A stretch of DNA of 56,818 nt, filler included, from Diploschistes diacapsis (Eukaryota), in assembly GCA_023645945.1 (NCBI GenBank). It is 6 parts of 6 records of this genome, joined end to end, with 100 filler letters (N's around TTAATTAATTAA, not from the genome) between each part and the next. Parts side by side here need not be neighbours in the genome. Positions count along the whole stretch, not along the records: positions 28,482 to 37,862 come from JALAIB010001045.1; 5 more parts are not named here. One strand, given 5' to 3'. The notes below the pieces were generated by a model, which ran no database searches, had not been told where the DNA came from, and worked only from the letters and a program-made list of their open reading frames with translations. Shown one piece after another: positions 9,409 to 48,190 of the stretch; the first letter of the stretch is position 1, and each line of letters begins with the position of its first letter. Made by a program: the position numbers and the translations under genes.

Positions 9409-9508
9409 NNNNNNNNNNNNNNNNNNNNNNNNNNNNNNNNNNNNNNNNNNNNTTAATTAATTAANNNNNNNNNNNNNNNNNNNNNNNNNNNNNNNNNNNN
9501 NNNNNNNN
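9409..9508. other. Artificial contig linker / assembly gap (same linker at 18901-19000, 28382-28481, 37863-37962, 47342-47441)
   Basis: N44-TTAATTAATTAA-N44, a six-frame stop spacer, identical at all five sites. Confidence 0.97.
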
Positions 9509-18391: not shown

Positions 18392-19000
18392 GGGAGTGAT
18401 GCGGGTAGCGAAGTTCTGTGCTGCTGTTTACATTAGCGAGGCGCTGTGGTGCAGTGCTTGTGGATTGCAAGCCTACTGTGGGCCGGGCTAAGGCTTAAGG
18501 TGCTGTGGGCCTGCTGAGGCGTCCAACGGCTCGGAGTGTTGACGAGGGAATATTGCTCTGTTAGAGATACCCATTACGCATTGGATTATGGTCATTGGAT
18601 GTGAAGACTCGCTTGTTATAAACTTTGATGATTAAGTTTCGACTCACAACAAACACACCACCTCATAATCTCTGTTCATTGATCGTTGGAGGGAAACATT
18701 CCTACTATTGATCGTGCTGAAAAGTAAAGAGTTAATCTATCAGTGGGCTCGGGAGCACAATAAAAGTGCTCATCAGACCCCGTAAACCACCTTCTCTGCT
18801 GCGCATCGCCATACTATGTCCCCTGCCAAACCCCCATACGCTTTCACATCCATTTTCCCCTGCAAACATCCTACCCATCCGACCAGCGCAGCTCCAAAAG
18901 NNNNNNNNNNNNNNNNNNNNNNNNNNNNNNNNNNNNNNNNNNNNTTAATTAATTAANNNNNNNNNNNNNNNNNNNNNNNNNNNNNNNNNNNNNNNNNNNN

Positions 19001-22300: not shown

Positions 22301-22620
22301 CGATTCTTTCCAGGACTTCTTCGTCCTACACGCTCTTTTGACTTTCATTTCTTTCGCCTTTCTTAACCAGAAAAGTAAGTCACGCCATTCTCAACGAGGC
22401 CATCCAGGGCGGACTTGATTGCCAGCTCAACTGACACGAAACGCAGCTACAATCCTTCACATTCGACTTGTCAGATTCACTCGCTTCTATCTGACCCTGA
22501 CAGTAAGTCGAAGGCTCGTGTGTTTTGAAGGAGTAGGGGGCTGATCGAGTTGGTAGCCAAAAGTCGCGCCCTAGAATTCATACCAGACCACATAATACTT
22601 TAATACAACACATCCATACT

Positions 22621-25600
22621 ATGGTTCGCCTGCTCAAATTCGCCGAGCTCGCTGCGGTGCTCCTTCTTGTTGAAGGCACTGTCGCCATTCCAAATGTCCC
22701 GCGATATGCTCCGTTTCCCAAACACATCAATCGCAGGCAGGATCCCATCGCAAACACCAGTACTCCGGTCAACACACCTTCCACGCCAATCGAGCAATCA
22801 ACAACCCCTCTGGGAGAAAGTACAACCCCAAGCGGGGAGCCGACCACAACAGCGGAGAATGATGCAACCAGCACGCCTCCCACCATCCCACTCCCGATTT
22901 CTACGCCGACGCTCTCGGTGAGTGCAAGTGCAAGTCTTGGCGACGGTGGCTCTAGCACTTCAAACGGTGCGAGCTCTACGCCGGATCAAGCTAGTTCCAC
23001 GCCTGGACAGGCAAGCTCCACGCCGGGTCAAGCGAGCTCTGCACCTGACCAAGCGAGCTCCACGCCCGGCCAGGTAAGCTCTGCACCAGCGCAGGCTAGT
23101 TCGACACCTGGGCTGGCAAGCTCTACACCGGTGCAGGCTACTTCATCTCCAGCTCAAGCCAGCCCTACACCAGGACAGACTAGCTCGACACCAGGGCAGG
23201 CTTCTTCATCCCTAGGCCAAGCCAGCTCTACACCAGGACAGGCAAGTTCGACACCAGGGCAGGCAAGCTCCACGCCAGCTCAAGTTAGTCCGACACCGGT
23301 CCAGGCTTCTTCGATTCCCGAAGCTTCCAGTTCGGCATTCTCTCCCAGTGAATCCTCACCAACTGCCTCCAGCCCTGGCTCACAATCGACCGCGCCTGTT
23401 GTCAGTGTTTCGGCAAGTGTCAGCAATCCGATACCGCCAGTCACTTCCTTGTTGTCATCATTGCTACCACAGCCGGCTCCATCACAGAGCTTATCTGACC
23501 AGCCTTCGTCGGACACTGCACAGCCTAGCGGAAGTCAGACGCCAAATACCCAGACTCGGAATCCTAACCCCACCGAAAGCGCAAGTCAGTCGGGAGGTAA
23601 CTCGAACACTGTGACGCCAAGCAACCCATTAACTGTACTAACGAGCTTGCCAGCCTCGGTGTCTTTCTCAGACTCGATACCTGTGTCGGTACCAAGCGTT
23701 GCATCTACGCTGCCTGGTTCCATACCTGTCTCGGTGCCCACCTCGCTGCCCACCACCCCTATTTCCTCCCTGCCTGGCTCTATTCCGTCATCGACTCCGC
23801 CGGCTAGCACAATTATCCCTGTGCCAGTATCGACCGTGTCCGGGCCTGACGGAGCTACTACCGTTCTATCGACTCCTGGCATCGTCTCAAGCTCGGTTGT
23901 CCCAGCACCGGTATCAACTATATCTGGAGCTAACGGAGTTACTACTGTCCTCTCAACTCCTGGTATAGTCTCAAGTTTGACCTCAGTGCTTTCAATTCCA
24001 CCCATTACGACCACTGATGCCTCTGGCTCACCCACCACTATTCCAGCCCAATCTTCGACCCAAGTCATACCCGTGTCGAATACTTTGTCGTCTCCTGGCA
24101 TAGTCTCGAGCCTGACGTCGGTACTTTCGATTCCACCTATTACGACCACTGATGCCTCTGGCTCGCCCACCATTATTCCGGCCCAGTCTTCGACCCAAGT
24201 CATACCCGTGTCGAATACTTTGTCGTCTCCTGGCATAGTCTCGAGCCTGACGTCGGTACTTTCGATTCCAGCCATTACGACCACTGATGCTTCTGGCTCA
24301 CCCACCATTATTCCGGCCCAGTCTTCGACCCAAGTCATACCCGTGTCGAATACTTTGTCGTCTCCTGGCATTGTTTCGAGTCTGACGTCGGTACTTTCGA
24401 TTCCAGCCATTACGACCACTGATGCTTCTGGCTCGCCCACCATTATTCCGGCCCAGTCTTCGACCCAAGTCATACCCGTGTCGAATACTTTGTCGTCTCC
24501 TGGCATAGTCTCGAGCCTGACGTCGGTACTTTCGATTCCACCTATTACGACCACTGATGTCTCTGGCTCACCCACCATTATTCCGGCCCAATCTTCGACC
24601 GTGGTTATACCCGTCTCGGTCTCGAGTCTCACCTCGCTGCTCTCAATTCCAGCCATTACGACGACTGATGCCTCTGGCTCACCTACCACCATTCCAGCCC
24701 AATCTTCGACCCAAGTCATTCCCGTCACCAATACTGTCTCGTCTTCTGGCATTGTCTCAAGTCTAACCTCGATACTTTCGATCCCCCCTGTCACAACCAC
24801 TGATGCCTCTGGTTCACCCACCACCATTCCAGCCCAATCCTCCACCGCGGTTATACCCGTCTCGAACACAGTGCCTTCGCTTTCGATGTCCAGCTCGGCA
24901 ACGTCTGCAGGCTTTACCGGTACCGCGACGCCTGTGTCTGGCTCTACTGGCGTAACTGCTAGCGCCTCGAGTCCTGCTGCGAGCGGAACGGAGTCTCATA
25001 GTGGGAGTGTTCAGCCTTCAGTATCTGGCTCGCAATCTGGCGCATCGGGTTCCGCAACGCATACGGAGTCTGGTTCGCAGTCTGGCGCTTCTGGCTCCGC
25101 AATTCATACGGAATCCGGAACGAAGCCCTCGGCCACAGGGGCGTCTGCTACGGGTGTATCTGATTCGAGTGCGGCTCCTGGATCAACCGGCCACGCATCT
25201 AGCGGAGCCGTTGCAACGCCTACAGAGCCAAACAGTGCGTACCCTACGACGGGCGCCACGTCCATCGTCGCTACCGCCACGGATAGTCTCACCGCTCAAT
25301 TCACCCCCACAACGATCGTTTTCGATACGACGCCGACACTGGCTCCAACGTCTACGATGAGCGATACCGGTATTCCAACTACTCTTCCAGGTGTAATCGG
25401 CAATCCATACACTAACGGCACGCTTCCCGCCCCACCCGAGGGGATGACACTCATCCAATTCGCGTTCAAGAGAGCTCTGGACTACGAGTTCGTTGTCACG
25501 CACCAATCTGCGATCGACGAGATCTTCTTGTACCTTCCCATGGGTGTGGCGTACGGCTTGACCGAGTCTCCCGATGCAGTCGTGATGCAAAGCTTGATGC

Positions 25601-26244
25601 CCTACGACACGAGTAGTAGCGGATATATCACTACTCTTGCTCTCTGTTACATCGGAGCAGACCAGCTCACTGCTATGGAGGATGCGCTGCTCAAGCCGAA
25701 CTCAAAGTTCCACAATTACAGCCCGAACACTTCGCCCGTGTTCCAGCTGGTATCCCTTATCGACACTAGCTTCCCTCTTCTCGCGAATCCATCCATGGCC
25801 GGTGGAGGAGGTGGAACCGGAAGTGGCAATCCGTCTTCGACTTCGTCCTCCAACCCGAACATTGGAGATCTGGGCGCCAGCAGCGCTTCGCAGGGTTCCG
25901 TCAACACGACAGCCGTCGGTGCTGCAGTCGGTGCCGTTGGTGGAGCAGCTCTCTACGGTGCCATCATGTTCTTTATTGCCAGAAGGTACCGACAACGCCG
26001 TGCCGCGCACAGCCGATCGTCTTCCATGATCGATACTTCCAGCATGGCACAGAGCCATGGCGAGGCGGTGACCGGTGCAGCCTCGGCCCTGATGGGTGGA
26101 GGATTGGGTCACAACGGAGACCACGAGGCCGCGTACTATGGCACCAATGGTCGCAATTCAAGAGGGAGCGGGCACAGCGGAAGCTCTCGGGGACGCGACA
26201 TCTCTGCTCCCGTCATGGCCGAGAACTCTCTCGGATGGAATTGA
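22621..26244 (+). CDS. msb2: Signalling mucin Msb2 (Hkr1/Msb2 family)
   Basis: Signal peptide, Ser/Thr/Pro mucin region, HMH domain (LIQFAF..ALDYEFVV...IFLYLP.GVAYGL...MQSLMPYDT...GYITTLA), one TM helix followed by RRYRQRR, and the conserved C-terminus ISAPVMAENSLGWN. Confidence 0.93.
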   Translation: MVRLLKFAELAAVLLLVEGTVAIPNVPRYAPFPKHINRRQDPIANTSTPVNTPSTPIEQSTTPLGESTTPSGEPTTTAENDATSTPPTIPLPISTPTLSVSASASLGDGGSSTSNGASSTPDQASSTPGQASSTPGQASSAPDQASSTPGQVSSAPAQASSTPGLASSTPVQATSSPAQASPTPGQTSSTPGQASSSLGQASSTPGQASSTPGQASSTPAQVSPTPVQASSIPEASSSAFSPSESSPTASSPGSQSTAPVVSVSASVSNPIPPVTSLLSSLLPQPAPSQSLSDQPSSDTAQPSGSQTPNTQTRNPNPTESASQSGGNSNTVTPSNPLTVLTSLPASVSFSDSIPVSVPSVASTLPGSIPVSVPTSLPTTPISSLPGSIPSSTPPASTIIPVPVSTVSGPDGATTVLSTPGIVSSSVVPAPVSTISGANGVTTVLSTPGIVSSLTSVLSIPPITTTDASGSPTTIPAQSSTQVIPVSNTLSSPGIVSSLTSVLSIPPITTTDASGSPTIIPAQSSTQVIPVSNTLSSPGIVSSLTSVLSIPAITTTDASGSPTIIPAQSSTQVIPVSNTLSSPGIVSSLTSVLSIPAITTTDASGSPTIIPAQSSTQVIPVSNTLSSPGIVSSLTSVLSIPPITTTDVSGSPTIIPAQSSTVVIPVSVSSLTSLLSIPAITTTDASGSPTTIPAQSSTQVIPVTNTVSSSGIVSSLTSILSIPPVTTTDASGSPTTIPAQSSTAVIPVSNTVPSLSMSSSATSAGFTGTATPVSGSTGVTASASSPAASGTESHSGSVQPSVSGSQSGASGSATHTESGSQSGASGSAIHTESGTKPSATGASATGVSDSSAAPGSTGHASSGAVATPTEPNSAYPTTGATSIVATATDSLTAQFTPTTIVFDTTPTLAPTSTMSDTGIPTTLPGVIGNPYTNGTLPAPPEGMTLIQFAFKRALDYEFVVTHQSAIDEIFLYLPMGVAYGLTESPDAVVMQSLMPYDTSSSGYITTLALCYIGADQLTAMEDALLKPNSKFHNYSPNTSPVFQLVSLIDTSFPLLANPSMAGGGGGTGSGNPSSTSSSNPNIGDLGASSASQGSVNTTAVGAAVGAVGGAALYGAIMFFIARRYRQRRAAHSRSSSMIDTSSMAQSHGEAVTGAASALMGGGLGHNGDHEAAYYGTNGRNSRGSGHSGSSRGRDISAPVMAENSLGWN
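22960..23310 (+). repeat. 21-bp coding tandem repeat (QASSTPG units) in Msb2
   Basis: About 16 degenerate heptapeptide units. Confidence 0.85.
23950..24870 (+). repeat. 135-bp (45-aa) coding minisatellite in Msb2, about 7 copies
   Basis: Near-identical units GIVSSLTSVLSIPxITTTDASGSPTxIPAQSSTQVIPVSNTLSSP; one copy is internally shortened. Confidence 0.92.
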
Positions 26245-28381: not shown

Positions 28382-28481
28382 NNNNNNNNNNNNNNNNNNN
28401 NNNNNNNNNNNNNNNNNNNNNNNNNTTAATTAATTAANNNNNNNNNNNNNNNNNNNNNNNNNNNNNNNNNNNNNNNNNNNN

Positions 28482-29486
28482 GGATCGGAAGGGGAGGGAG
28501 ATGCTGAGGGGTGGGATGGAGGTTTGGAAGGAGCAGAAGAGTGGTCAGTGGGAAGGGAAGGGTCGTAAAAGGGGATTATGGAGAGGCGACGGTAGATGGA
28601 GGCTTGGACCCGTTGTCAGCAATTGAGGTGGGAGCGGCCGTGGAAGAGTACATACTATAATCGCGATAGAAGCCTGTCCCGACCACCGACATCTTTCCTT
28701 TAGATCCCCCACTATCCGTGCCTTTCACCATTTCAAGGAGCCACCCCAACAACGACTTCTGCTGCTCTTCTCGCTTCTCACTTCCCTTCACGCCCGGATT
28801 CCGCTCACCTCCAATCTCGCCCCCGTACCACCCCTCTCCCCTTCTCACTACATACCCCATCCTCTTCAACCCCGCATAAACCACATATCGCTCCACGCTA
28901 CACCCGTCTCTCCCAGCCAGCATCGCATACGCAGCCTGCAAACTCACCGGCAGCCCCGCCCAAGGACCTTCCTCCGGCCACCTTACATCCAGACTGCCCC
29001 TTTCCAACAGATACAGCGTCTCCTCCGGCAGCAGATGCATCCTTCCCTCCCTATCCGCCCTGCCCATGGTGCGGAAGTGCTGCCCGCGCTGGCGCTCCAC
29101 TATACACATTCCTGTCTCGGGGTCGAAAGCGGCGATGATTTGCTGCTTCGGGTTGTGTAGGCGATGGTAGGAGAGAGCGCTGTGCATGGCTGCTTGCGAG
29201 GCGGCCAGGGTGGAGGCCTGGATATGGGTGCCGTGAGGCTCGAAGTCCTTCTCGCCGCGGCGGGGGAGTGTGGGGTTAGATGATGTACTTGACAAGGAGT
29301 GTTAGCTAGTGGGGAATGGGGAGGAGAGAGGGCCTAAGGGGTTCTCTGATAGTGAGGATGGAAGAGGGGGATGTACAGAGAGAGGCTGGAAAGAAAGCGG
29401 AAGTCTTGTGTTTCATCGTCGAGGTCGTTATCCTCGGCGCTGGCTAGGGCGGAGAGGCGAATGGCGTCTTCGTCGACGTCGGCCAT
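28482..29486 (-). CDS. SEN54: tRNA-splicing endonuclease subunit Sen54 (3' end lost in gap); at least 2 introns
   Basis: MADVDED...DETQDFRFL, LPRRGEKDFEP, RGQHFRTMG, LLPEETLYLLERGSLD, VSLQAAYA, YVVYAGLKRMGYVV. Confidence 0.92.
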
Positions 29487-30026
29487 AGTGGGGGAGGAGA
29501 ACTGGCGCCTGGCGCCAATGAGCTTCGATTCCCTAGGGATGCCACTGCGAGTGATGCCACTCTCGGTACGATACCGAAACTCTATGGGACTGGGGCGCAG
29601 CCGGTCCGAATGATACTACTGCGTGCTTGGCCTTGTTTCGAGTTTTTGAGGGCGGGAAATGTTTCGTCCCCAAAATCAGTAATTACTTATAGAGGTTAGC
29701 ATTCAAAGCGCGCCACAACCGAGTTGGTTTCCTGAAAGAGCTATGGAATAACACTAATCGCCACTGAGTATACAACCCTAGTAAATATACATGAGACTCT
29801 TCAAAGCACTGGTGAGTTGTCACTTTGAAACCAACTCAAAGGGCACAGTCCTGCGCCTGCCGTTCACTAGGGACTGTATCCAAATTTCACGATACAAAGA
29901 TTGCATAGTGTACGAAAGTAAGGGAGTTGGGAATCGCACCTTCTTCCATACAAGAATCCTGTCTTGTACTAAACCAAAAATTGAATCATTCAAAATCATT
30001 ATTGAGTGAAAATCTTGTTCAAACAT

Positions 30027-30175
30027 GGTGAGATGGCCGAGCGGTCCAAGGCGACACGTTTAGGCGAAAATTTCTTCACCGATCCGTGTTCCGAAAGGGC
30101 GTGGGTTCGAATCCCGTAAATATATCCTTCTAGCTTTCTTATGGAAATGTGTTAATCCTTTCCAGACTCTCATCA
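30027..30175 (+). tRNA. tRNA-Leu(UAG) with a canonical 19-nt anticodon intron (30065-30083) and a second, 50-nt GT-AG insertion in the T-stem (30116-30165)
   Basis: Acceptor GGTGAGA/TCTCATC with discriminator A, A-box TGGCCGAGCGG, anticodon stem ACACG/CGTGT with TAG at 30061-30063, long variable arm TCCGAAAGGGC, T-arm GTGGG-TTCGAAT-CCC|AC, and a T7 terminator at 30185-30191. Confidence 0.9.
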
Positions 30176-30184
30176 ATCCAAATC

Positions 30185-30191
30185 TTTTTTT
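30185..30191 (+). terminator. RNA polymerase III oligo-T terminator of the tRNA-Leu gene
   Basis: TTTTTTT about 10 nt after the reconstructed discriminator base; it is the first T-run of 4 or more after the tRNA start. Confidence 0.75.
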
Positions 30192-30468
30192 AAGTTATGG
30201 ATGAATGGGCAGTACTTGGGCTTTTTGAAGGCCGGGCGGAGTGGTACTATAACGGTATCACAGGGGCGCTGAGGCGGATGAATAGTTTGCTGGATGGCTA
30301 TGAGACCATGGTCATGAATAAAAATACAGAAATTATAAGGGAGCTGAACGGTTCAAGAACTTCGCCAAGAGATGGAATGATAATGGAGCAGTAATGGTTT
30401 GAATAAGGACCGCGAGCATACACACAGGCATGCCCCATTTTCTGCTCCATATACTTTGATGTCAAGTT

Positions 30469-31523
30469 TCAAGTACTACTTCGATTAACGCCAGCGTCTA
30501 GTATCATCCCAAAGACATCACTACCATAAAGTCCAAGCCCCGTGCCCACCCCCACAGCGGCGGCGCCAGCCTCCCGCATCCTCCTGTATCCCGCATGATC
30601 AAGCACTCCGCCTGTGCCAATTATCTCAATGTGTTTCAGGGCGGACGACGCATCCAGCATGCGCCGTATCGTCTTGACATTGCCCAGAGCTAGAGGATGC
30701 AGCGCAGCGCCCGCCATGGCTCCTATGCCTGTGCCAGAGGCAGAGTTGATGGCGGGCTCGCCGGAGTCTCGTGCGACGAAGCAGGAGCCGAGTGTGTTCG
30801 TCGCTGTAATGAACGCGACGGGACAGTGTCCGCGGTCTGCTGTGACGTCCTGAAGGCCTCCTATCAGAGTGTCGAATTGGCCTTGGTAGGTGTAAGGGGG
30901 TATTTTGAGACCGATTGGCAACTCGTTGTCGAGGATGCCGGGCTGACTCAAGACTTCGAGATATTCTCCTAGACGCGAGCGAGAGTATGCGGGTGGGGGT
31001 TTGTCAGGTATGTTTGGGCAGGAAAGGTTGATTTCCATGAACCAAGGCCAGTCCACAATTTGCTCTTTCCGCAGCAGACCATAGCACTTTACAACCTCTT
31101 CCGGCAAACCCGTGACTGAAAATATTACTGGTTTCTGGGAGCAATAATCGTCACGCTTGTAGATATCGATCATAATGTCGATGTAGTTCTGCAGTGGAAT
31201 CGGTGAGTATCCCAGAGTATTAAGACTGGACAGTGTGGTAGCCTGATCCTTTTTGACGCTTGGTAAATCGAAGTCGGATTTCATCTCATGCAGAGACTCC
31301 GCATTGAAGAAACAATACTGATGCAGGTTATCATTGTGTGCAAAGCCTTGTAGAAGACTGGTACGGATAGTTATGGCACCGGTATGCTTGGAGAAATAGA
31401 GATCCTCCAACTGTTCAGGACTCGATGCCCATCGATTTGAAGAGTTAAGGAGAGGTGGTCAAAGTTTAGCACCTTTATCTCGGCACTCTTATCAGAGTGG
31501 CAGAGTGAGGATGGAATATCCAT
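30469..31523 (-). CDS. Class-1A dihydroorotate dehydrogenase-like FMN enzyme (Ura1-like / dihydrouracil oxidase clade), apparent 1-nt frameshift near 31458
   Basis: Motifs PPLLNSSN.WA, GAITIRTSL, NTLGYSP, IFSVTG, EINLSCPNI, GLKIPPY, TATNTLG, HPLALGNV, IIGTGGV. The ATG at 31523 (MDIPSS...VLNFD) is out of frame with PPLLN by one base. Confidence 0.8.
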
Positions 31524-32073: not shown

Positions 32074-33705
32074 TCAAGCTTCGCCAAACTCCTTCACATC
32101 GGTCTTCTTACCAGATAACGCCAGGGGCACAATACCACTAACGTGCATCTCCGGACCGTAAACGTGCATGTCAAGCTTAAGCTCTTCGCCCACGGCTTTG
32201 ATATTCTTGAGGCCTTCCTGGTAATTGGGTCCAGCGCGTCGTACCCAAATCTGTACCTTGTGTTCGTTCAATGTGCTGGACACTAGTCTTAGGGCACGGA
32301 TAACACCCTTGAAGGTCGACGCAACCTGAGGACAATCAGTGCAGCCCTCGAGTCGTTTGGAAGCGCCAGCTTACGTTGGTGAAGTTAGCAATACCACCAC
32401 CTATGAAGAGTACTTTGCCTTCATCGTGCATTGGCGCCTTAAGCATTAGGTCAAAAACGGTGCGGGCGTAATGGAATGTCTGGGTCTCGGTTGGGGCTCC
32501 AGAGTATTCGCCATAATTCGCCAATTGCGAGGAAAATCCAGCCGAGGCAATAGCATCAGCGTAAACAACCGAAGCTCCACCGCCAGCAACCTGAGCTGTT
32601 AGTCAAAACCAATAGCCTCGAATAATGAACTGACCAATGTCCAAATGCGGCCCTCCGGGTTCAGAATGGTAAGCTTGAGCGAGGCACCGGTCTTTGCGTC
32701 CATCTCAGCGATGTAGGCTTCTTCTTTACTTAATTCACGGCCGAAAGGAGCCGGAAATTCCATTGGCGGGCCGGCATCAACGTTTACTTTACCGCTACCC
32801 GTTGTTGCCGAGGCAAGTCCAAGAGCTGCTGGACTTCTCGCAATCGCCCATTTCGTGCCACATTCGAATTCGGCTGTCTGGTCAAGTTTCGCTGCAAGAT
32901 CAAGAAAGTGTACCTCTGCGGAGGTGCCGGCAGAATTCGGGATCACGACTAGAGGATTGATCTCCAGGTAGGAGAACTGGCAGTCAACGTAAACGGCATA
33001 AAGACGCGAGATGAAGTCAATGAGGACATTGTGCACACCCTTTGGAACTTTCTTAAGCAAGGCCGAAGCAAGCTTTTCGTTGGAGGGATATTCGGCGTGA
33101 TCGATAGGAATCAGGATCTTCTCGGCTTTGGTGTCAACATCACCAACATCGACACCACCTTCGTGTGTGAAGAGAATCCAGTCGCCCTAGTACGGTTTGT
33201 CAATATCAAGACATGATGACAAAATGACTTAGCAGGGGCGATTTTGTGCATGGAGATAACGTACCTCTCTCACGGAGTTAATATTTATGTAGTACTCGGT
33301 GTCCGAGGGATGTGGAACAAAGGGCTCGACGAGAAATTGCCTGAGCACGCCGGTGACGGTCTCAACCTTTTGTGCTTTGCCTGCGCGAGCTTCAATCCAT
33401 TCTCGTACTTCTGGCCACGTCTTGTTTAATGCTAATAGCCCGCTCTTGCCTCGTCGCTTGATTAGCTGATCTGGTTTGGCAACGAATTTGGCACCCTTGG
33501 TGAGAAGCCATGGGTAAGTGGCTTCAGCTTGATCGAGGATAGACTGGACCGATGCATCTTCTGGAAAGTAAAGAGAGGCCAGTCGGGAGGGCGGGTTGTG
33601 TGTTGCAGAAGCAGGGAGAGGTGTAGACTTGATGACAGGAGCTCTGGTAAGGTGGTAGTTCAAGATGGCCTTGCCATCAGCTTCGAGGATTGATTTGGCG
33701 GACAT
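32074..33705 (-). CDS. acl2: ATP-citrate lyase small (ATP-grasp/N-terminal) subunit; 4 coding exons
   Basis: [81 protein letters not shown]. Confidence 0.96.
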
Positions 33706-34841: not shown

Positions 34842-37502
34842 ATGCCTTCCTCAAGCATCACTCCCCCGACACAGAATGGGGTGTCTCCTTCTGCTCAAGG
34901 GGCTTCCGCCAACGATTCCATCCGCCGCTTCACAGCACCGAGCAGACCGTTAAGTCCTCCGGCTGAGCATGTGCGGCTTCACATCCCCCTACCTCCGTAC
35001 AGGCCGGGCTAAAGGGCTTCCAGACACTTTTTCACAATAAGACTCGATGCTTCGTCTAGTAGGTCTTTTCTGCCAAGTCAGCCATGGCATGAAAACTCAC
35101 CAAGGAACAGTGGCCTTCAACCCCGAGCCGTCCAGGGCATGCTGGACTTCGACTTCATCTGCAAGCGCAGTACGCCCTCGGTAGCCGGTATAATCTACAC
35201 TTTCGGTGGCCAGTTCGTCAGCAAGATGTTGGTCTCGGCACTGGAAAGGGCATCACCATACTGACGAATCCAGGTACTGGGGAACAAGCGAAACCCTGCT
35301 GCCAGTCTATCAGAGCGTTGAAAAGGCAATGGCAAAGCACTCTGACGTGGACACCGTGGTTAACTTTGCCTCGTCCCGTAGTGTATACACCTCGACAATG
35401 GAACTCATGGAATTCCCGCAGGTCAAAAGTATTGCCATCATTGCCGAAGGTGTTCCAGAGAGACGCGCTCGTGAAATCCTCAATGTCGCCCAGAAGAAAG
35501 GTATCACCATCATTGGCCCCGCCACGGTGGGCGGGATCAAACCCGGCTGCTTTAAGATTGGGAATACTGGAGGAATGATGGAAAACATCATCTTCTCGCG
35601 TCTGTATCGCAAGGGCTCTGTCGGCTATGTCTCAAAAAGCGGAGGTAAGTTCTCTTTGACTGACAGTTGGCTAGTCACTCACATCTTTTATTCAAGGTAT
35701 GTCGAATGAGCTGAACAACATCATCTGTAACAACACAAATGGTGTTTATGAGGGCGTTGCCATTGGCGGTGATAGATATCCTGGCACCACGTTCATTGAC
35801 CATTTGCTGCGGTACCAGGCCGACCCAGCATGTGAGTTACTCGTTCTTCTCGGTGAAGTCGGGGGCGTGGAGGAGTACCGTGTCATTGAAGCTGTCAAGA
35901 ATGGCACCATCACAAAACCAATTGTTGCATGGGCGATTGGCACGTGTGCCAGCATGTTCAAGACCGAGGTCCAATTCGGCCACGCAGGAGCTCTCGCCAA
36001 TTCGCAGCTTGAAACGGCCGTTAACAAGAACAAGGCTATGGCCGAAGTTGGTATTCACGTACCAGCAACTTTCGAGGAAATGCCCGCTCTCCTCAACAAG
36101 ATCTATAAGCAGATGGTAGCGGATGGAACAATCAAGCCGGCACCGGAGCCAATCCCACCAAAGATTCCCATCGATTACTCTTGGGCCCAGGAACTTGGCC
36201 TTATTCGCAAACCCGCTGCATTCATCTCTACTATTTCCGACGATCGTGGCCAAGAGCTTCTGTATGCCGGCATGCCAATCTCGGATGTCTTTAGGGAGGA
36301 TATCGGCATTGGTGGTGTTATGGCCTTGCTTTGGTTTCGTCGTCGACTACCAGATTATGCTACAAAGTTTCTTGAGATGGTTCTCATGCTTACAGCCGAC
36401 CGTAAGAATCCATCCGAATTGATAATCCAACTGACTAACGCTGGCTAGATGGTCCTGTGCGTACTTATTCGTTCCTCCTTTCCTTCTCACCCACTACTTA
36501 TTAGTCGCCTTTCTGCTTTTTTTTCCCCATTAATAAATCTTGTCATTACTGACTTCCATAGGCCGTTAGCGGAGCCATGAACACCATTATTACGACAAGA
36601 GCAGGAAAAGATCTCATCAGCGCTCTGGTTTCGGGTCTCTTGACTATTGGTTCTCGCTTCGGTGGTGCCCTAGATGGTGCTGCTGACGAGTTCACGAATG
36701 CCTATGATAAAGGCCTCAGTCCTCGCGAGTTTGTTGACACTATGCGGAAGGAGAACAAACTTAGTGGGTACCGCGGTCATGACTGGAAAATAGGTGCTGA
36801 TATGTGATAGTTCCCGGTATTGGACACAAGGTCAAGTCAAGGAACAACCCAGATCTCCGTGTCGAGCTAGTCAAGGAATTTGTGAAGAAACGCTTCCCTT
36901 CGTGCAAGATGCTCGACTACGCGATCGCCGTTGAAACCGTCACGACTTCAAAGAAGGATAACCTGATTCTAAACGTGGATGGGGCGGTGGCGGTGTGCTT
37001 TGTGGACTTGATGAGGAATTGTGGAGCCTTTTCCGCAGAAGAGGCCGAAGACTACATGAAGATGGGTGTACTCAACGGGCTCTTCGTTCTAGGACGAAGG
37101 TGAGTTTTTCTACAGTCGTTGTGTTTTCCCGATGCCAGTCGCGGTCTGCTCGCCAAGCATTGCACACTTTACCAGACCATTTTCTTCCGATCATTGCACA
37201 CATCCAAATGCCCGGGCATTACAAAACCTTTATTTGGCCAACACACTCGACATTTCAATCTTGGATATCCTTAAAGGACTTTAGGCTAACAAGCTTTCTA
37301 GCATCGGTCTTATCGCCCACTATCTCGATCAGAAGAGACTAAGGACAGGTACATGGGCTGCCATGCTTTTCCCTGCCAATTAGCTAATCAAGTGTCAGGT
37401 CTTTACCGGCATCCATGGGATGATATTACATACCTTATGCCAAGCTTGGCAAAGGGCGCGGGACCACCTGGTAACGAAGGCCGTGTAGAGGTGGCCTTGT
37501 AA
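34842..37502 (+). CDS. acl1: ATP-citrate lyase large (CoA-binding/citrate synthase-like) subunit; 10 exons including an 8-nt microexon
   Basis: [46 protein letters not shown] (phospho-His), [33 protein letters not shown]. Nine GT-AG introns reconstructed in frame; divergent from acl2. Confidence 0.96.
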
Positions 37503-37962
37503 CTTAGGGGAGAGGTTTCAGTATCCGAAGCAAAAGAAGACAATTTTTGATAAGCGTCACGGCGCAATACTTTAGAGGCGTTTGTCTGCTAATCTAGGAA
37601 GGCCCTGTTGTTCAATGAATCGGTGCTGCTACGATAAGTGATCTGACAATTGCGGTTTCACGTGCTCGGGCTCCTCTTAATTTCTTGGAAATGGGTAGGA
37701 TAGGGAAGAGAAGATGCGTTGAGCGGGCAGAATACGGCCAACGTTGAATGTAAATCCAAAGGTTTTCGTGGGTTACAAAGCAGAGCTCCATCTTGCCCAC
37801 TCACTCTCCGCTCTCCTTCTATTGTTCATCCTCCCCCCTCCTTTCACCCATCCCTTTCATTCNNNNNNNNNNNNNNNNNNNNNNNNNNNNNNNNNNNNNN
37901 NNNNNNTTAATTAATTAANNNNNNNNNNNNNNNNNNNNNNNNNNNNNNNNNNNNNNNNNNNN

Positions 37963-39133: not shown

Positions 39134-40312
39134 CCCTAGTAACCGAACATCCATAAGCGCTTTTTACACCCAAAATGCCCTCCCCTTTTTCATCCATTGT
39201 AAGCTCCATAAATTTTTTTTTTTGGCTAATTTAAAGCTAGATACTCTCGACGATGGAAAATGCTCTCATTGAGGCGCAAACTCGATCCCCCTCGCTGTCG
39301 CTCCACCAAATCGCTCGGCGCAACGGCGTCCCCCTCTCCTCCCTCCACGACAAGCTTAATGGCCGCCCTGGAAGGTCTGCTGGCCACCAATCGCAGCAGT
39401 TTTTGACTGCTGAGCAGGAGAGTGTCCTCGCGAGGCATGTGGAACGTTTACAGGCCGGAGGAGTCTCTGTTTCTGTCGCAATGCTTAAAAGCTTAGCGGC
39501 GGAGATCTGGAGTGCCTCCGAGCCGAATAACCAGCGCCAGCCAGGCCGTCACTGGCCGCAGCGCTTCTTGAGGAGGCATCCAGAGCTGGGTACAGCCTGG
39601 AGTAGCTCTCTTTCAAACAAGAGAGCCGACGCCGTGTGGAAGGGCGCCGGCATCGAGCCCTTCGACCCTTCCAGACCGATCTCCAAGGCTCCCGGCGCCG
39701 TCGACGACCCTCCTGAAGCTCGCTACACCCTGCCTGCGACTCCTCGAGCCCTCCGAGAGGTGGATCTTTTGGAGGACTCGACTTTGGACTTTCGGCAGGA
39801 GCTTGAAGTGCTCCGAAGCTTCTCCAAGATGGCCAAAGCGGCTAGGGAGGCTCTTACGGAGGTTACGCTTCTGGCGGCAGAGAATAAGAGGCTTAGGGAG
39901 GCCTCGACACATCGCCAGAAACACAAGCGCACTATTATAACTACAGGAGGTGAGTTTTTGACCCCTACGAAAGCTGCTAACGTGCACCAGGCGAAGGAAA
40001 GAGCACTCTACGAGGTAGGCAGGCAGGAGAGGCAAAAACAGGCTAGAAAGGAAAGGCTGGCAGTGCTTCAGGCTGCTGGGATATACAAGAATAAGAAGAT
40101 AATCCCGAAAGGAAGGCTGGTTATCTTGGGGAGGCTTCCTGGCGCCAGCGTCGACGACGCTGGCGATCAGACATGATTAGATGAATCTACAGGGTCAGAT
40201 ATAGCTACTACTCGATCTACAGGGCTTCAAATTAATCACTTTTGGAGATATTTCACATTAAATATTTACTGTTGTAGTTTTTGCTATTGTATCACGTGTT
40301 CGGGTACTAGGG
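39134..40312 (+). mobile_element. Non-autonomous pogo/Fot1-type DNA transposon (internal deletion derivative) with 16-bp TIRs
   Basis: Left CCCTAGTAACCGAACA (39134-39149) and right TGTTCGGGTACTAGGG (40297-40312) are inverted repeats with one mismatch; they enclose a transposase-like ORF. Confidence 0.75.
39253..40176 (+). CDS. Truncated pogo-family transposase: HTH_psq plus CENP-B-type HTH and C-terminal tail, no DDE domain
   Basis: SLHQIARRNGVPLSSLHDKLNG, LTAEQESVL...L.A.G, PGRHWPQRFLRRHPEL, then directly WKGAGIEPFDP and LLAAENKRLREA, which normally follow the DDE domain. Confidence 0.8.
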   Translation: MENALIEAQTRSPSLSLHQIARRNGVPLSSLHDKLNGRPGRSAGHQSQQFLTAEQESVLARHVERLQAGGVSVSVAMLKSLAAEIWSASEPNNQRQPGRHWPQRFLRRHPELGTAWSSSLSNKRADAVWKGAGIEPFDPSRPISKAPGAVDDPPEARYTLPATPRALREVDLLEDSTLDFRQELEVLRSFSKMAKAAREALTEVTLLAAENKRLREASTHRQKHKRTIITTGGEFLTPTKAANVHQAKERALYEVGRQERQKQARKERLAVLQAAGIYKNKKIIPKGRLVILGRLPGASVDDAGDQT

Positions 40313-47341: not shown

Positions 47342-48190
47342 NNNNNNNNNNNNNNNNNNNNNNNNNNNNNNNNNNNNNNNNNNNNTTAATTAATTAANNN
47401 NNNNNNNNNNNNNNNNNNNNNNNNNNNNNNNNNNNNNNNNNGGAGGAGGAGGTCGGCGGATGCATGGGGGAGGACTGATGTGGTGAAGTTGGGGTTTTTG
47501 GAAGGGGAGGAAAGCCAAGAGGTGTTAGTCTGTGAAGATTTGTGATGATTGCGCTCGGCAAATGAAGCTTTCTTTCTTTTCACTGCGTGCCTGTAGACTA
47601 CTACTACTACTACTCAGACGGAGAACTCGCAGTTTGGCAACTCAAAAGGAGAAAAAAAACTAGCGAACGTGAACCCCCCCCCGATTTAGCTCAAGCAATC
47701 TGCCTCTAGATAACCGCTCGACTGGGGCAATCGCAGAGGATAGACATCCGAGAAACTTGTGTATCTGTAATCAAACTCGGGAACCAGCTCGAGCTCCTGA
47801 CAAGGTACCGCGTCCATTAACAACATTCCGATTCTTGAACTTGATCACTTCATGCATATTTAAAATTCTTAGAACGAGGATAATTTGATTCAACACCAAG
47901 CTACTACTCACGAGCTTCGATTTCGTTCATTTAGCGCAAATGCTCCAGTAGCTTTTTTCAAATTCCAGAAACACAAGGCCCCTTTAATCAACAACTCCAG
48001 CGCTATGCTCCGCAACGATAAATGCTGTCCTCCGCCCGCTATGCCACAGATGCAACCCATGTGTTCTATCAGGCTCAAGCGGTCGTCAAGCGTAAAGCGT
48101 CAAGCGTGAAAAGTATGGACGTGGCGCAAGCACATTGAATCAACAAGCGATACCCAGCGAGTGGCATCTCGAAGAAACACCAGCGCTCTG

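Follow-up and report, generated by a model that had tools for sequence, protein, structure and literature searches.

Fungal U6 small nuclear RNA (snRNA) genes, which are transcribed by RNA polymerase III (Pol III), contain introns that are removed by the spliceosome and for which an origin by reverse splicing has been proposed; such introns are also described in U1, U2, U5 and ribosomal RNA (rRNA) genes (PMC5855946). The hosts named in the passages of that paper on such introns are snRNA and rRNA genes, and no tRNA gene is named there. In lichen mycobionts, the rRNA genes transcribed by RNA polymerase I (Pol I) carry "ectopic" spliceosomal introns that are absent from the mature rRNA, and a 57-nt intron of the Cladonia grayi rDNA is correctly spliced from Pol I transcripts in yeast (PMC8527467). 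Spliceosomal introns in the rRNA genes of lichen-forming ascomycetes have also been described by Bhattacharya et al. 2000 (as cited in PMC8527467 and PMC6652019). Here, we analyzed a stretch of 56,818 nucleotides from the Diploschistes diacapsis assembly GCA_023645945.1 (hereafter, the window), with a focus on a tRNA-Leu(UAG) gene that is interrupted by a 50-nt insert bounded by GT and AG in addition to a canonical 19-nt tRNA intron.

The word stem "spliceosom" occurs nowhere in the main text of a review of tRNA introns (PMC4090602). Introner-like and transposon-derived introns constitute a known route by which new introns arise at arbitrary sites in fungi. Full-text literature searching, bounded by the terms and the library used, turned up no description of a tRNA gene with a spliceosomal intron. 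Judging from the DNA, we estimate at about one half the probability that a lichen-associated ascomycete carries here a live nuclear tRNA-Leu(UAG) gene, the predicted transcript of which needs the spliceosome as well as the tRNA-splicing endonuclease (SEN).

Anatomy of the tRNA-Leu(UAG) gene

The gene is encoded at positions 30027-30175 of the plus strand and specifies a type II tRNA-Leu with anticodon UAG that is complete apart from two interruptions (coordinates of all features in Table 1). The first interruption is a separate 19-nt intron at positions 37/38 of the tRNA, as is typical of SEN introns, and the second is the 50-nt insert (30116-30165), which separates the last ten bases of the tRNA from the remainder. 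Exact removal of the insert yields a perfect Leu(UAG) cloverleaf in which U33, G37, G53-T54-T55-C56, A58, C61 and A73 are all present. The gene further presents the organization of a type 2 Pol III gene, with internal A and B boxes, no run of four or more T (T4) at 30027-30184 (the longest internal run is of three) and an oligo-T run just downstream. The absence of T4 from the insert carries almost no weight as evidence, since 84% of the background GT..AG segments of the window (defined below) also lack it.

As encoded, the gene is not recognized as a tRNA. ARAGORN found no tRNA in the whole window, nor in 29900-30300, and Rfam gave no match anywhere in the window at its gathering thresholds. 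Using relaxed thresholds, the Rfam tRNA model matched only 30034-30117 (model positions 8-63 of 71; 20.9 bits for a cut-off of 29). Once 30116-30165 had been deleted in a script, ARAGORN folded the gene into a regular cloverleaf and called it tRNA-Leu(tag), with an intron of 19 nt.

The boundaries of the insert were evaluated with a strict excision test, in which all five T-stem pairs and all seven acceptor pairs must be Watson-Crick or G-U. Three excisions passed, each of 50 nt: the GT..AG excision (11 Watson-Crick pairs and one G-U pair over the T- and acceptor stems), the TA..GA excision (10 and two, respectively) and the AA..AC excision (nine and three). Only the GT..AG excision gives a T-stem made entirely of Watson-Crick pairs, and it places GT (30116-17) and AG (30164-65) exactly at boundaries that restore the mature RNA, as is expected of a U2-type intron. 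ARAGORN is too lenient to separate these registers, with a Leu call in 41 of 441 nearby deletions. A T-stem composed of GTGGG and CCCGT, with two wobble pairs, is common in bacterial tRNA genes (metagenome loci L004-L008 and many others), and in the precursor encoded by the window the first bases of the insert, GU, could likewise finish a 5-bp T-stem before splicing.

These results largely agree with the first-pass annotation of the window. It had described a tRNA-Leu(UAG) with a 19-nt intron after position 37, split by 30116-30165 and followed by a T7 run, and both our coordinates and the ARAGORN call coincide with this description; its statements on intact A and B boxes and on the absence of T4 also hold. 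It had further anticipated that tRNA finders would miss the gene, which is the case for ARAGORN and Rfam, and the check that it proposed, tRNA scoring with and without the insert, separates the two states: Leu(tag) is found only after the deletion. Its assertion that the boundaries cannot slide was overstated, as three excisions restore pairing, but the GT..AG register is indeed alone in yielding an all-Watson-Crick T-stem.

Resemblance of the insert to spliceosomal introns

Pyrimidines occupy eight of the ten bases ahead of the CAG that closes the insert, and both this 3' end and the length fit a U2-type intron of this host. At a fixed spacing of 50 nt, GT..AG is found at 0.35% of the positions of the window (1 in 287); with three allowed registers, the probability of observing it by chance is at most 3 in 287, or about 1%. 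We then computed a composite splice score for all 12,795 GT(40-70)AG segments of the window on both strands, combining agreement with the donor, the best match to the branch within the final 35 nt, the pyrimidines that precede the 3' end and YAG. The insert obtained a score of 12.0, which is reached by 66 of the 12,795 segments (0.5%), many of them evident real introns. When post hoc thresholds were placed at the insert's own values, two of the 12,795 segments passed, the insert included. Taken together, the GT..AG probability, the composite score and the thresholds indicate that the insert is intron-shaped in its sequence and resembles a spliceosomal intron well beyond chance; that an insertion had acquired all these properties by accident alone is unlikely, on the order of 1 in 10^4 to 10^5. 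In its donor and branch, however, the insert is not strong as an intron (see below).

For comparison, three introns of the window were fixed by ATP-citrate-lyase motifs, which we take to be conserved, running across their junctions (lengths and scores in Table 1), and other likely local introns measure 44-47 nt. The insert, with 50 nt, lies within the local range (44-52 nt, with one intron of 78 nt). The mRNA introns of the window had previously been given as 45-50 nt, which is roughly right but not exact (49, 52 and 78 nt for the confirmed introns). The intron-likeness claimed for the insert stands in that its score belongs to the top 0.5% and is level with those of the confirmed introns, but its donor and branch are weaker than those of the local mRNA introns.

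Two other approaches to local introns were discarded. A regular expression for introns of strong consensus matched 17 segments in the window, compared with a mean of 26 in shuffled sequences; it was uninformative and was replaced by the ranking of GT..AG segments. Motif-blind calling of introns by merging open reading frames (ORFs) produced 1,420 candidates in 140 clusters and was too ambiguous.

We also considered self-splicing and mobile elements. A group I or group II ribozyme core comprises hundreds of nucleotides, and we rejected a self-splicing intron for an insert of only 50 nt, with an ordinary fold (stability of the insert alone, z = -0.98, nothing notable) and no Rfam intron family matched. 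Neither a target-site duplication nor terminal repeats were found at the insert, in line with the earlier statement that it lacks a target-site duplication, and no second copy of it was found in the 56.8-kb window (best other match, 10 nt). A transposon with target-site duplication was accordingly judged unlikely.

The insert in other samples and the competing explanations

Sampled sequence words were found in five public sequencing runs, none of them RNA. A lichen metagenome (X1) contained every word sampled and is possibly the source of the window itself, a rock metagenome (X2) and a run of a named organism (X3) contained 9% of the sampled words each, and two further runs of the same study as X1 (X4 and X5) contained next to none. 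DNA contigs of four runs, X2 and X3 among them, were aligned to the window at 80% likeness. One X2 contig bridges 29946-30193, which includes the whole gene and the insert, with 22 other letters and one gap; contigs of X3 cover the same interval, insert included. In X2 as in X3, position 30136 reads C instead of T and the base at 30137 is missing, which leaves an insert of 49 nt; downstream of the gene, both retain a T6 run (loose-end consensus). Over 30195-30483, divergence from the window is about 3% for X3 and about 7% for X2. Because contigs from two other studies carry the insert with differences of their own, the insert is real DNA and not an assembly artefact. It is older than the split of the three lineages.

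All 11 differences listed for 29946-30193 fall outside the 80 exon bases; a further 34 substitution entries and 16 indel entries lie outside the list. The listed differences are located in the 5' flank (30010, 30011, 30012, 30014, 30015 and a C inserted behind 29950), in the canonical intron (30070, 30073 and 30081, i.e., 3 of 19 bases) and within the insert (30136 and the base deleted at 30137). Random placement would leave the exons untouched with a probability of (168/248)^11 = 0.014, or 0.066 when the cluster at 30010-30015 is counted as one event. Among the differences listed, the TTAAT, the pyrimidine tract and the CAG are unchanged in X3. This pattern is what would be expected of a tRNA gene under selection with introns drifting freely, although it is not secure.

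Should the gene be live, we infer from these data the following pathway. Pol III would transcribe the gene from its intact A and B boxes across both introns to the T7 run. A U2-type spliceosome would then remove the 50 nt at CCC/GT...AG/AC and join C63 to A64, with GAATCCC joined to ACTCTCATCA as the predicted junction; this joining would complete the T-stem and the acceptor stem. The pre-tRNA, now foldable, would be processed at its ends, and SEN and tRNA ligase would finally take out the 19-nt intron. The insert most likely arrived in an ancestor of these lineages by intron transposition, i.e., by reverse splicing into RNA, reverse transcription and recombination, a route proposed for the introns of U6 snRNA (PMC5855946) that we extend by inference to the spliceosomal introns in the rRNA genes of lichen fungi.

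The most credible alternative, although not the one that we favor, is that the locus is a recently inactivated copy of tRNA-Leu(UAG): the insert, intron-derived or acquired by chance, would have broken the T-stem, a transcript, if one is made, would not be spliced to a working tRNA, other Leu genes would suffice and decay would not have set in yet. Several observations weigh against a live, spliced gene, and a number of them would suit an inactivated copy. The donor is weak: compared with the host consensus GTRNGT, GTAAAT equals GTAAGT at five of six positions and has A at +5, a position at which G is found in all three protein-confirmed local introns (GTAAGT, GTAAGC and GTACGT), and on its exon side stands CCC rather than MAG. 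The branch is weak as well: TTAAT, the sole candidate, matches only the relaxed YTRAY, with its A 10 nt before the end, and no strict CTRAY was found at a distance of 6-30 nt from the 3' end. One confirmed local intron, for its part, uses a relaxed branch (TTGAC). The differences outside the list could fall in exons; they make up 16 of the 22 counted for the X2 contig (29946-30193) and 4 of the 12 counted for the X3 contig at 29953-30124, and in X3 the stretch 30094-30125 is probably close to contig ends. The insert is shared with close relatives, whose flanks have diverged by a few percent only, such that an inactive copy could still look intact. Redundancy is possible, since X2 contains a second Leu-like tRNA contig (30 of 34 bases identical to 30082-30115, with a different intron-like stretch upstream) in which the T-stem is uninterrupted (AC) and is followed by a different acceptor strand and a T run; this suggests that intact paralogs of the gene may exist, and the second Leu-like tRNA could belong to the same fungus or to another organism. 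The gene as encoded also fails with ARAGORN and Rfam. Finally, insertions in the D- and T-arms of eukaryotic tRNA genes are mostly taken as pseudogenes, with the exception of cases of the bulge-helix-bulge (BHB) type in nucleomorphs and in Cyanidioschyzon merolae (PMC4090602).

Nevertheless, a chance insertion would require GT..AG at the best register (1-3 in 287), a score in the top 0.5% and the modal intron length all together. The listed differences also number 0 in 80 exon bases vs. 3 in the 19 bases of the canonical intron. Whereas tRNA pseudogenes combine a broken fold with decay, here the insert alone breaks the cloverleaf: the stems, the invariant bases, the A and B boxes and the T7 terminator (T6 in X2 and X3) are intact, and no listed difference of the relatives falls in the exons. 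Overall, the earlier interpretation of the locus as a tRNA gene with a spliceosomal-type intron is partly supported: the anatomy and the intron-likeness hold up and are strengthened by the sharing of the insert, the sparing of the exons among the listed differences, the lack of a BHB and the lichen-associated lineage, but excision by the spliceosome followed by SEN is a prediction, the fixity of the boundaries was overstated, and the donor and the branch are weak.

It is improbable that the locus is retained for something other than tRNA production. Under this reading, it would be an element bound by TFIIIC or Pol III, it would give rise to a tRNA-like or 5'-half small RNA, or it would be part of a non-coding transcript of RNA polymerase II (Pol II) with the GT-AG segment as an ordinary intron. 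Such roles would be compatible with the intact A and B boxes, with exons 1 and 2 being spared among the listed differences and with the position of the gene in a spacer of roughly 850 nt that separates the 5' end of SEN54 from the 3' end of the dihydroorotate dehydrogenase gene. However, they would require neither that the 10-nt third exon pair perfectly with the T and acceptor strands nor that the anticodon arm be intact, and neither an ORF nor a Pfam-supported gene adjoins the locus on the plus strand.

We regard as very improbable that the insert is a non-canonical tRNA intron cut by SEN or another protein endonuclease and closed by a ligase, without the spliceosome, even though excised T-arm introns exist in some eukaryotes (PMC4090602) and a SEN54 gene lies in the window. 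In a manual check, a BHB intron was rejected: no 3-4-3 motif can be drawn, and the insert is located at 63/64 rather than 37/38. Cuts at CCC/G and AG/A would place AAUC opposite UUCC in the 4-bp helix; this pairing fails, as does that of the outer helix. In the minimum-free-energy fold of the precursor, the acceptor and anticodon stems are retained, no BHB motif appears and the stability is ordinary (z = -0.98). Moreover, fungal SEN measures from the mature domain of the tRNA, which the insert disrupts, and the GT..AG ends and the pyrimidine tract would be left as a coincidence. Lastly, an assembly or sequencing artefact is extremely improbable: although the window is metagenome-derived and X1, the best-matching run, may be its source and would then not be independent, X2 and X3 come from two other studies and contradict this explanation by bridging or covering the insert with differences of their own.

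A 17-mer of the junction matched at least 119 metagenome stretches, and among the 120 loci compared none presented the third exon downstream of it and none matched the window beyond the T-arm (longest match 41 nt, 30077-30117); this 17-mer is common in bacterial tRNAs (GTGGG/CCCGT T-stem), hence a poor probe for orthologs. Scanning contigs of prokaryote genomes with the 5' half of the tRNA gave one match, an unrelated intron-less Leu(UAG) gene (L120). This gene is of eukaryotic type, is followed by a T run and stands in a metagenome-assembled genome record of a Stappiaceae bacterium ("chromosome: 30"), which is probably eukaryotic DNA under a bacterial name. Many metagenome contigs (loci L003, L016, L023, L026, L028, L029 and similar ones) share a tRNA-like unit with a D-arm of Leu/Ser type, the T-arm GTGGGTTCGAATCCCGT and the conserved tail "GTGAGTG..GTGTGTTGTCAGGTAGAGGTCTCTGCG"; these shared units look like a family of tRNA-derived short interspersed elements.

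Genomic context and comparison with known systems

The window is ascomycete-like in its sequence. The tRNA gene is flanked by the genes for SEN54, a subunit of the tRNA-splicing endonuclease, and for dihydroorotate dehydrogenase (Table 1). That a subunit gene of this endonuclease lies about 400 nt upstream of a doubly interrupted tRNA gene, in divergent orientation, is probably a coincidence. In X2, 164 bases of the spacer between SEN54 and the tRNA gene (29781-29946) are replaced by 16 others, which indicates that the far upstream region of the tRNA gene is not conserved.

Table 1. Positions of the tRNA-Leu(UAG) gene, of its signals and of nearby features along the window
Feature	Position	Strand	Description	Evidence
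Exon 1	30027-30064	+	Acceptor 5' strand, D-arm, anticodon stem 5' strand, loop to G37	Sequence, ARAGORN, Rfam partial match
A box TGGCCGAGCGG	30034-30044	+	Within exon 1	
Canonical tRNA intron	30065-30083	+	19 nt, after position 37 (SEN type)	ARAGORN, anticodon loop
Exon 2	30084-30115	+	Anticodon stem 3' strand, 11-nt variable arm, T-stem 5' strand, T-loop, C61-C63; ends GTGGG TTCGAAT CCC	
B box GGTTCGAATCC	30104-30114	+	Within T-arm of exon 2; sole B-box-like match in the window	
Insert	30116-30165	+	50 nt, GTAAAT...TTTCCAG; between tRNA positions 63 and 64	
Donor GTAAAT	30116-30121	+	5' end of insert	
Branch-like TTAAT	30152-30156	+	A at 30155	
Pyrimidine tract and CAG	30156-30165	+	3' end of insert	
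Exon 3	30166-30175	+	10 nt; A64-C65 of T-stem, acceptor 3' strand TCTCATC, discriminator A73	Strict pairing test, ARAGORN
T7 run	30185-30191	+	Pol III terminator, 9 nt past discriminator	
SEN54 gene	28579-29615	-	tRNA-splicing endonuclease subunit	Pfam tRNA_int_end_N2, E = 2.4e-26
Dihydroorotate dehydrogenase gene	30472-31458	-		Pfam
Local intron	32326-32374	-	49 nt, score 12.5	ATP-citrate-lyase motifs across junction
Local intron	33187-33264	-	78 nt, score 11.0	ATP-citrate-lyase motifs across junction
Local intron	35645-35696	+	52 nt, score 13.0	ATP-citrate-lyase motifs across junction

Other Pfam matches in the window include two divergently placed genes for ATP-citrate-lyase subunits, thymidylate synthase, RRN3, a DEAH helicase, lipoyl synthase, sirohaem synthase and a copper amine oxidase. 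An open frame of 1,235 codons (22537-26241, plus strand), rich in Ser, Thr and Pro and without a Pfam match, contains long imperfect repeats ("...SSLTSVLSIPPITTTDASGSPT...") and its product looks like a mucin-like wall or surface protein. The ORF at 39241-40173 (plus strand) encodes a Tc5-transposase DNA-binding domain (HTH_Tnp_Tc5, E = 2.5e-9) and could be what remains of a transposon or else a CENP-B-like gene. Paired 44-base runs of N recur every ~9,480 bases (9409-9508, 18901-19000, 28382-28481, 37863-37962 and 47342-47441); they look like masking rather than assembly gaps, and one pair interrupts the thymidylate synthase gene.

If the insert is spliced, it would represent the first spliceosomal intron in a tRNA gene. 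The spliceosome could then act on a Pol III pre-tRNA before or alongside the tRNA pathway, the targets of intron transposition would extend past snRNAs and rRNAs, and standard finders would undercount the tRNA genes of such genomes. Splicing of the insert would also agree with a published view of lichen fungi as tolerating, or even using, a slow, spliceosome-dependent maturation of their translation machinery (PMC8527467). More tentatively, the genes transcribed by each of the three nuclear polymerases might include some with spliceosomal introns in lichen-associated ascomycetes; tRNA-Leu(UAG) would then be the first tRNA known to need two unrelated splicing machineries, and others may be hidden since finders reject them. 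If the insert is not spliced, the locus constitutes a clean case of an intron-shaped insertion that disables a tRNA gene, which is a useful caution.

Each of the known systems resembles this locus in part. Introner-like and transposon-derived introns are marked by multiple similar copies and by target-site duplications or terminal repeats; for the insert, the window contains neither a second copy nor a target-site duplication or terminal repeat. As in tRNA pseudogenes with arm insertions, the T-stem is broken as encoded and finders reject the gene; unlike them, the gene presents no other decay, the ends of the insert are exactly intron-like and the exons are spared among the listed differences. 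The introns of archaea, nucleomorphs and Cyanidioschyzon merolae can likewise be located outside 37/38, in the T-arm and beside a canonical intron (PMC4090602), but they rely on a BHB or related motif and on a protein endonuclease, whereas the insert presents GT..AG, a pyrimidine tract and no BHB.

The introns of U6 genes (e.g., in Schizosaccharomyces pombe) are similar to the insert in being short GT-AG stretches with 3' signals and a branch motif (only branch-like in the insert) in a small, structured Pol III gene. In contrast to U6, a tRNA is not a component of the spliceosome and has no special closeness to its catalytic center, and splicing is a prediction in the present case. The spliceosomal introns of lichen rRNA genes reside in Pol I genes rather than in a Pol III tRNA gene, and that of C. 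grayi combines a GTAAGT donor with a consensus branch, where the insert has GTAAAT and TTAAT. With these rRNA introns, however, the insert shares the lichen setting (its source run is a lichen metagenome), a similar size and a host gene that is not transcribed by Pol II.

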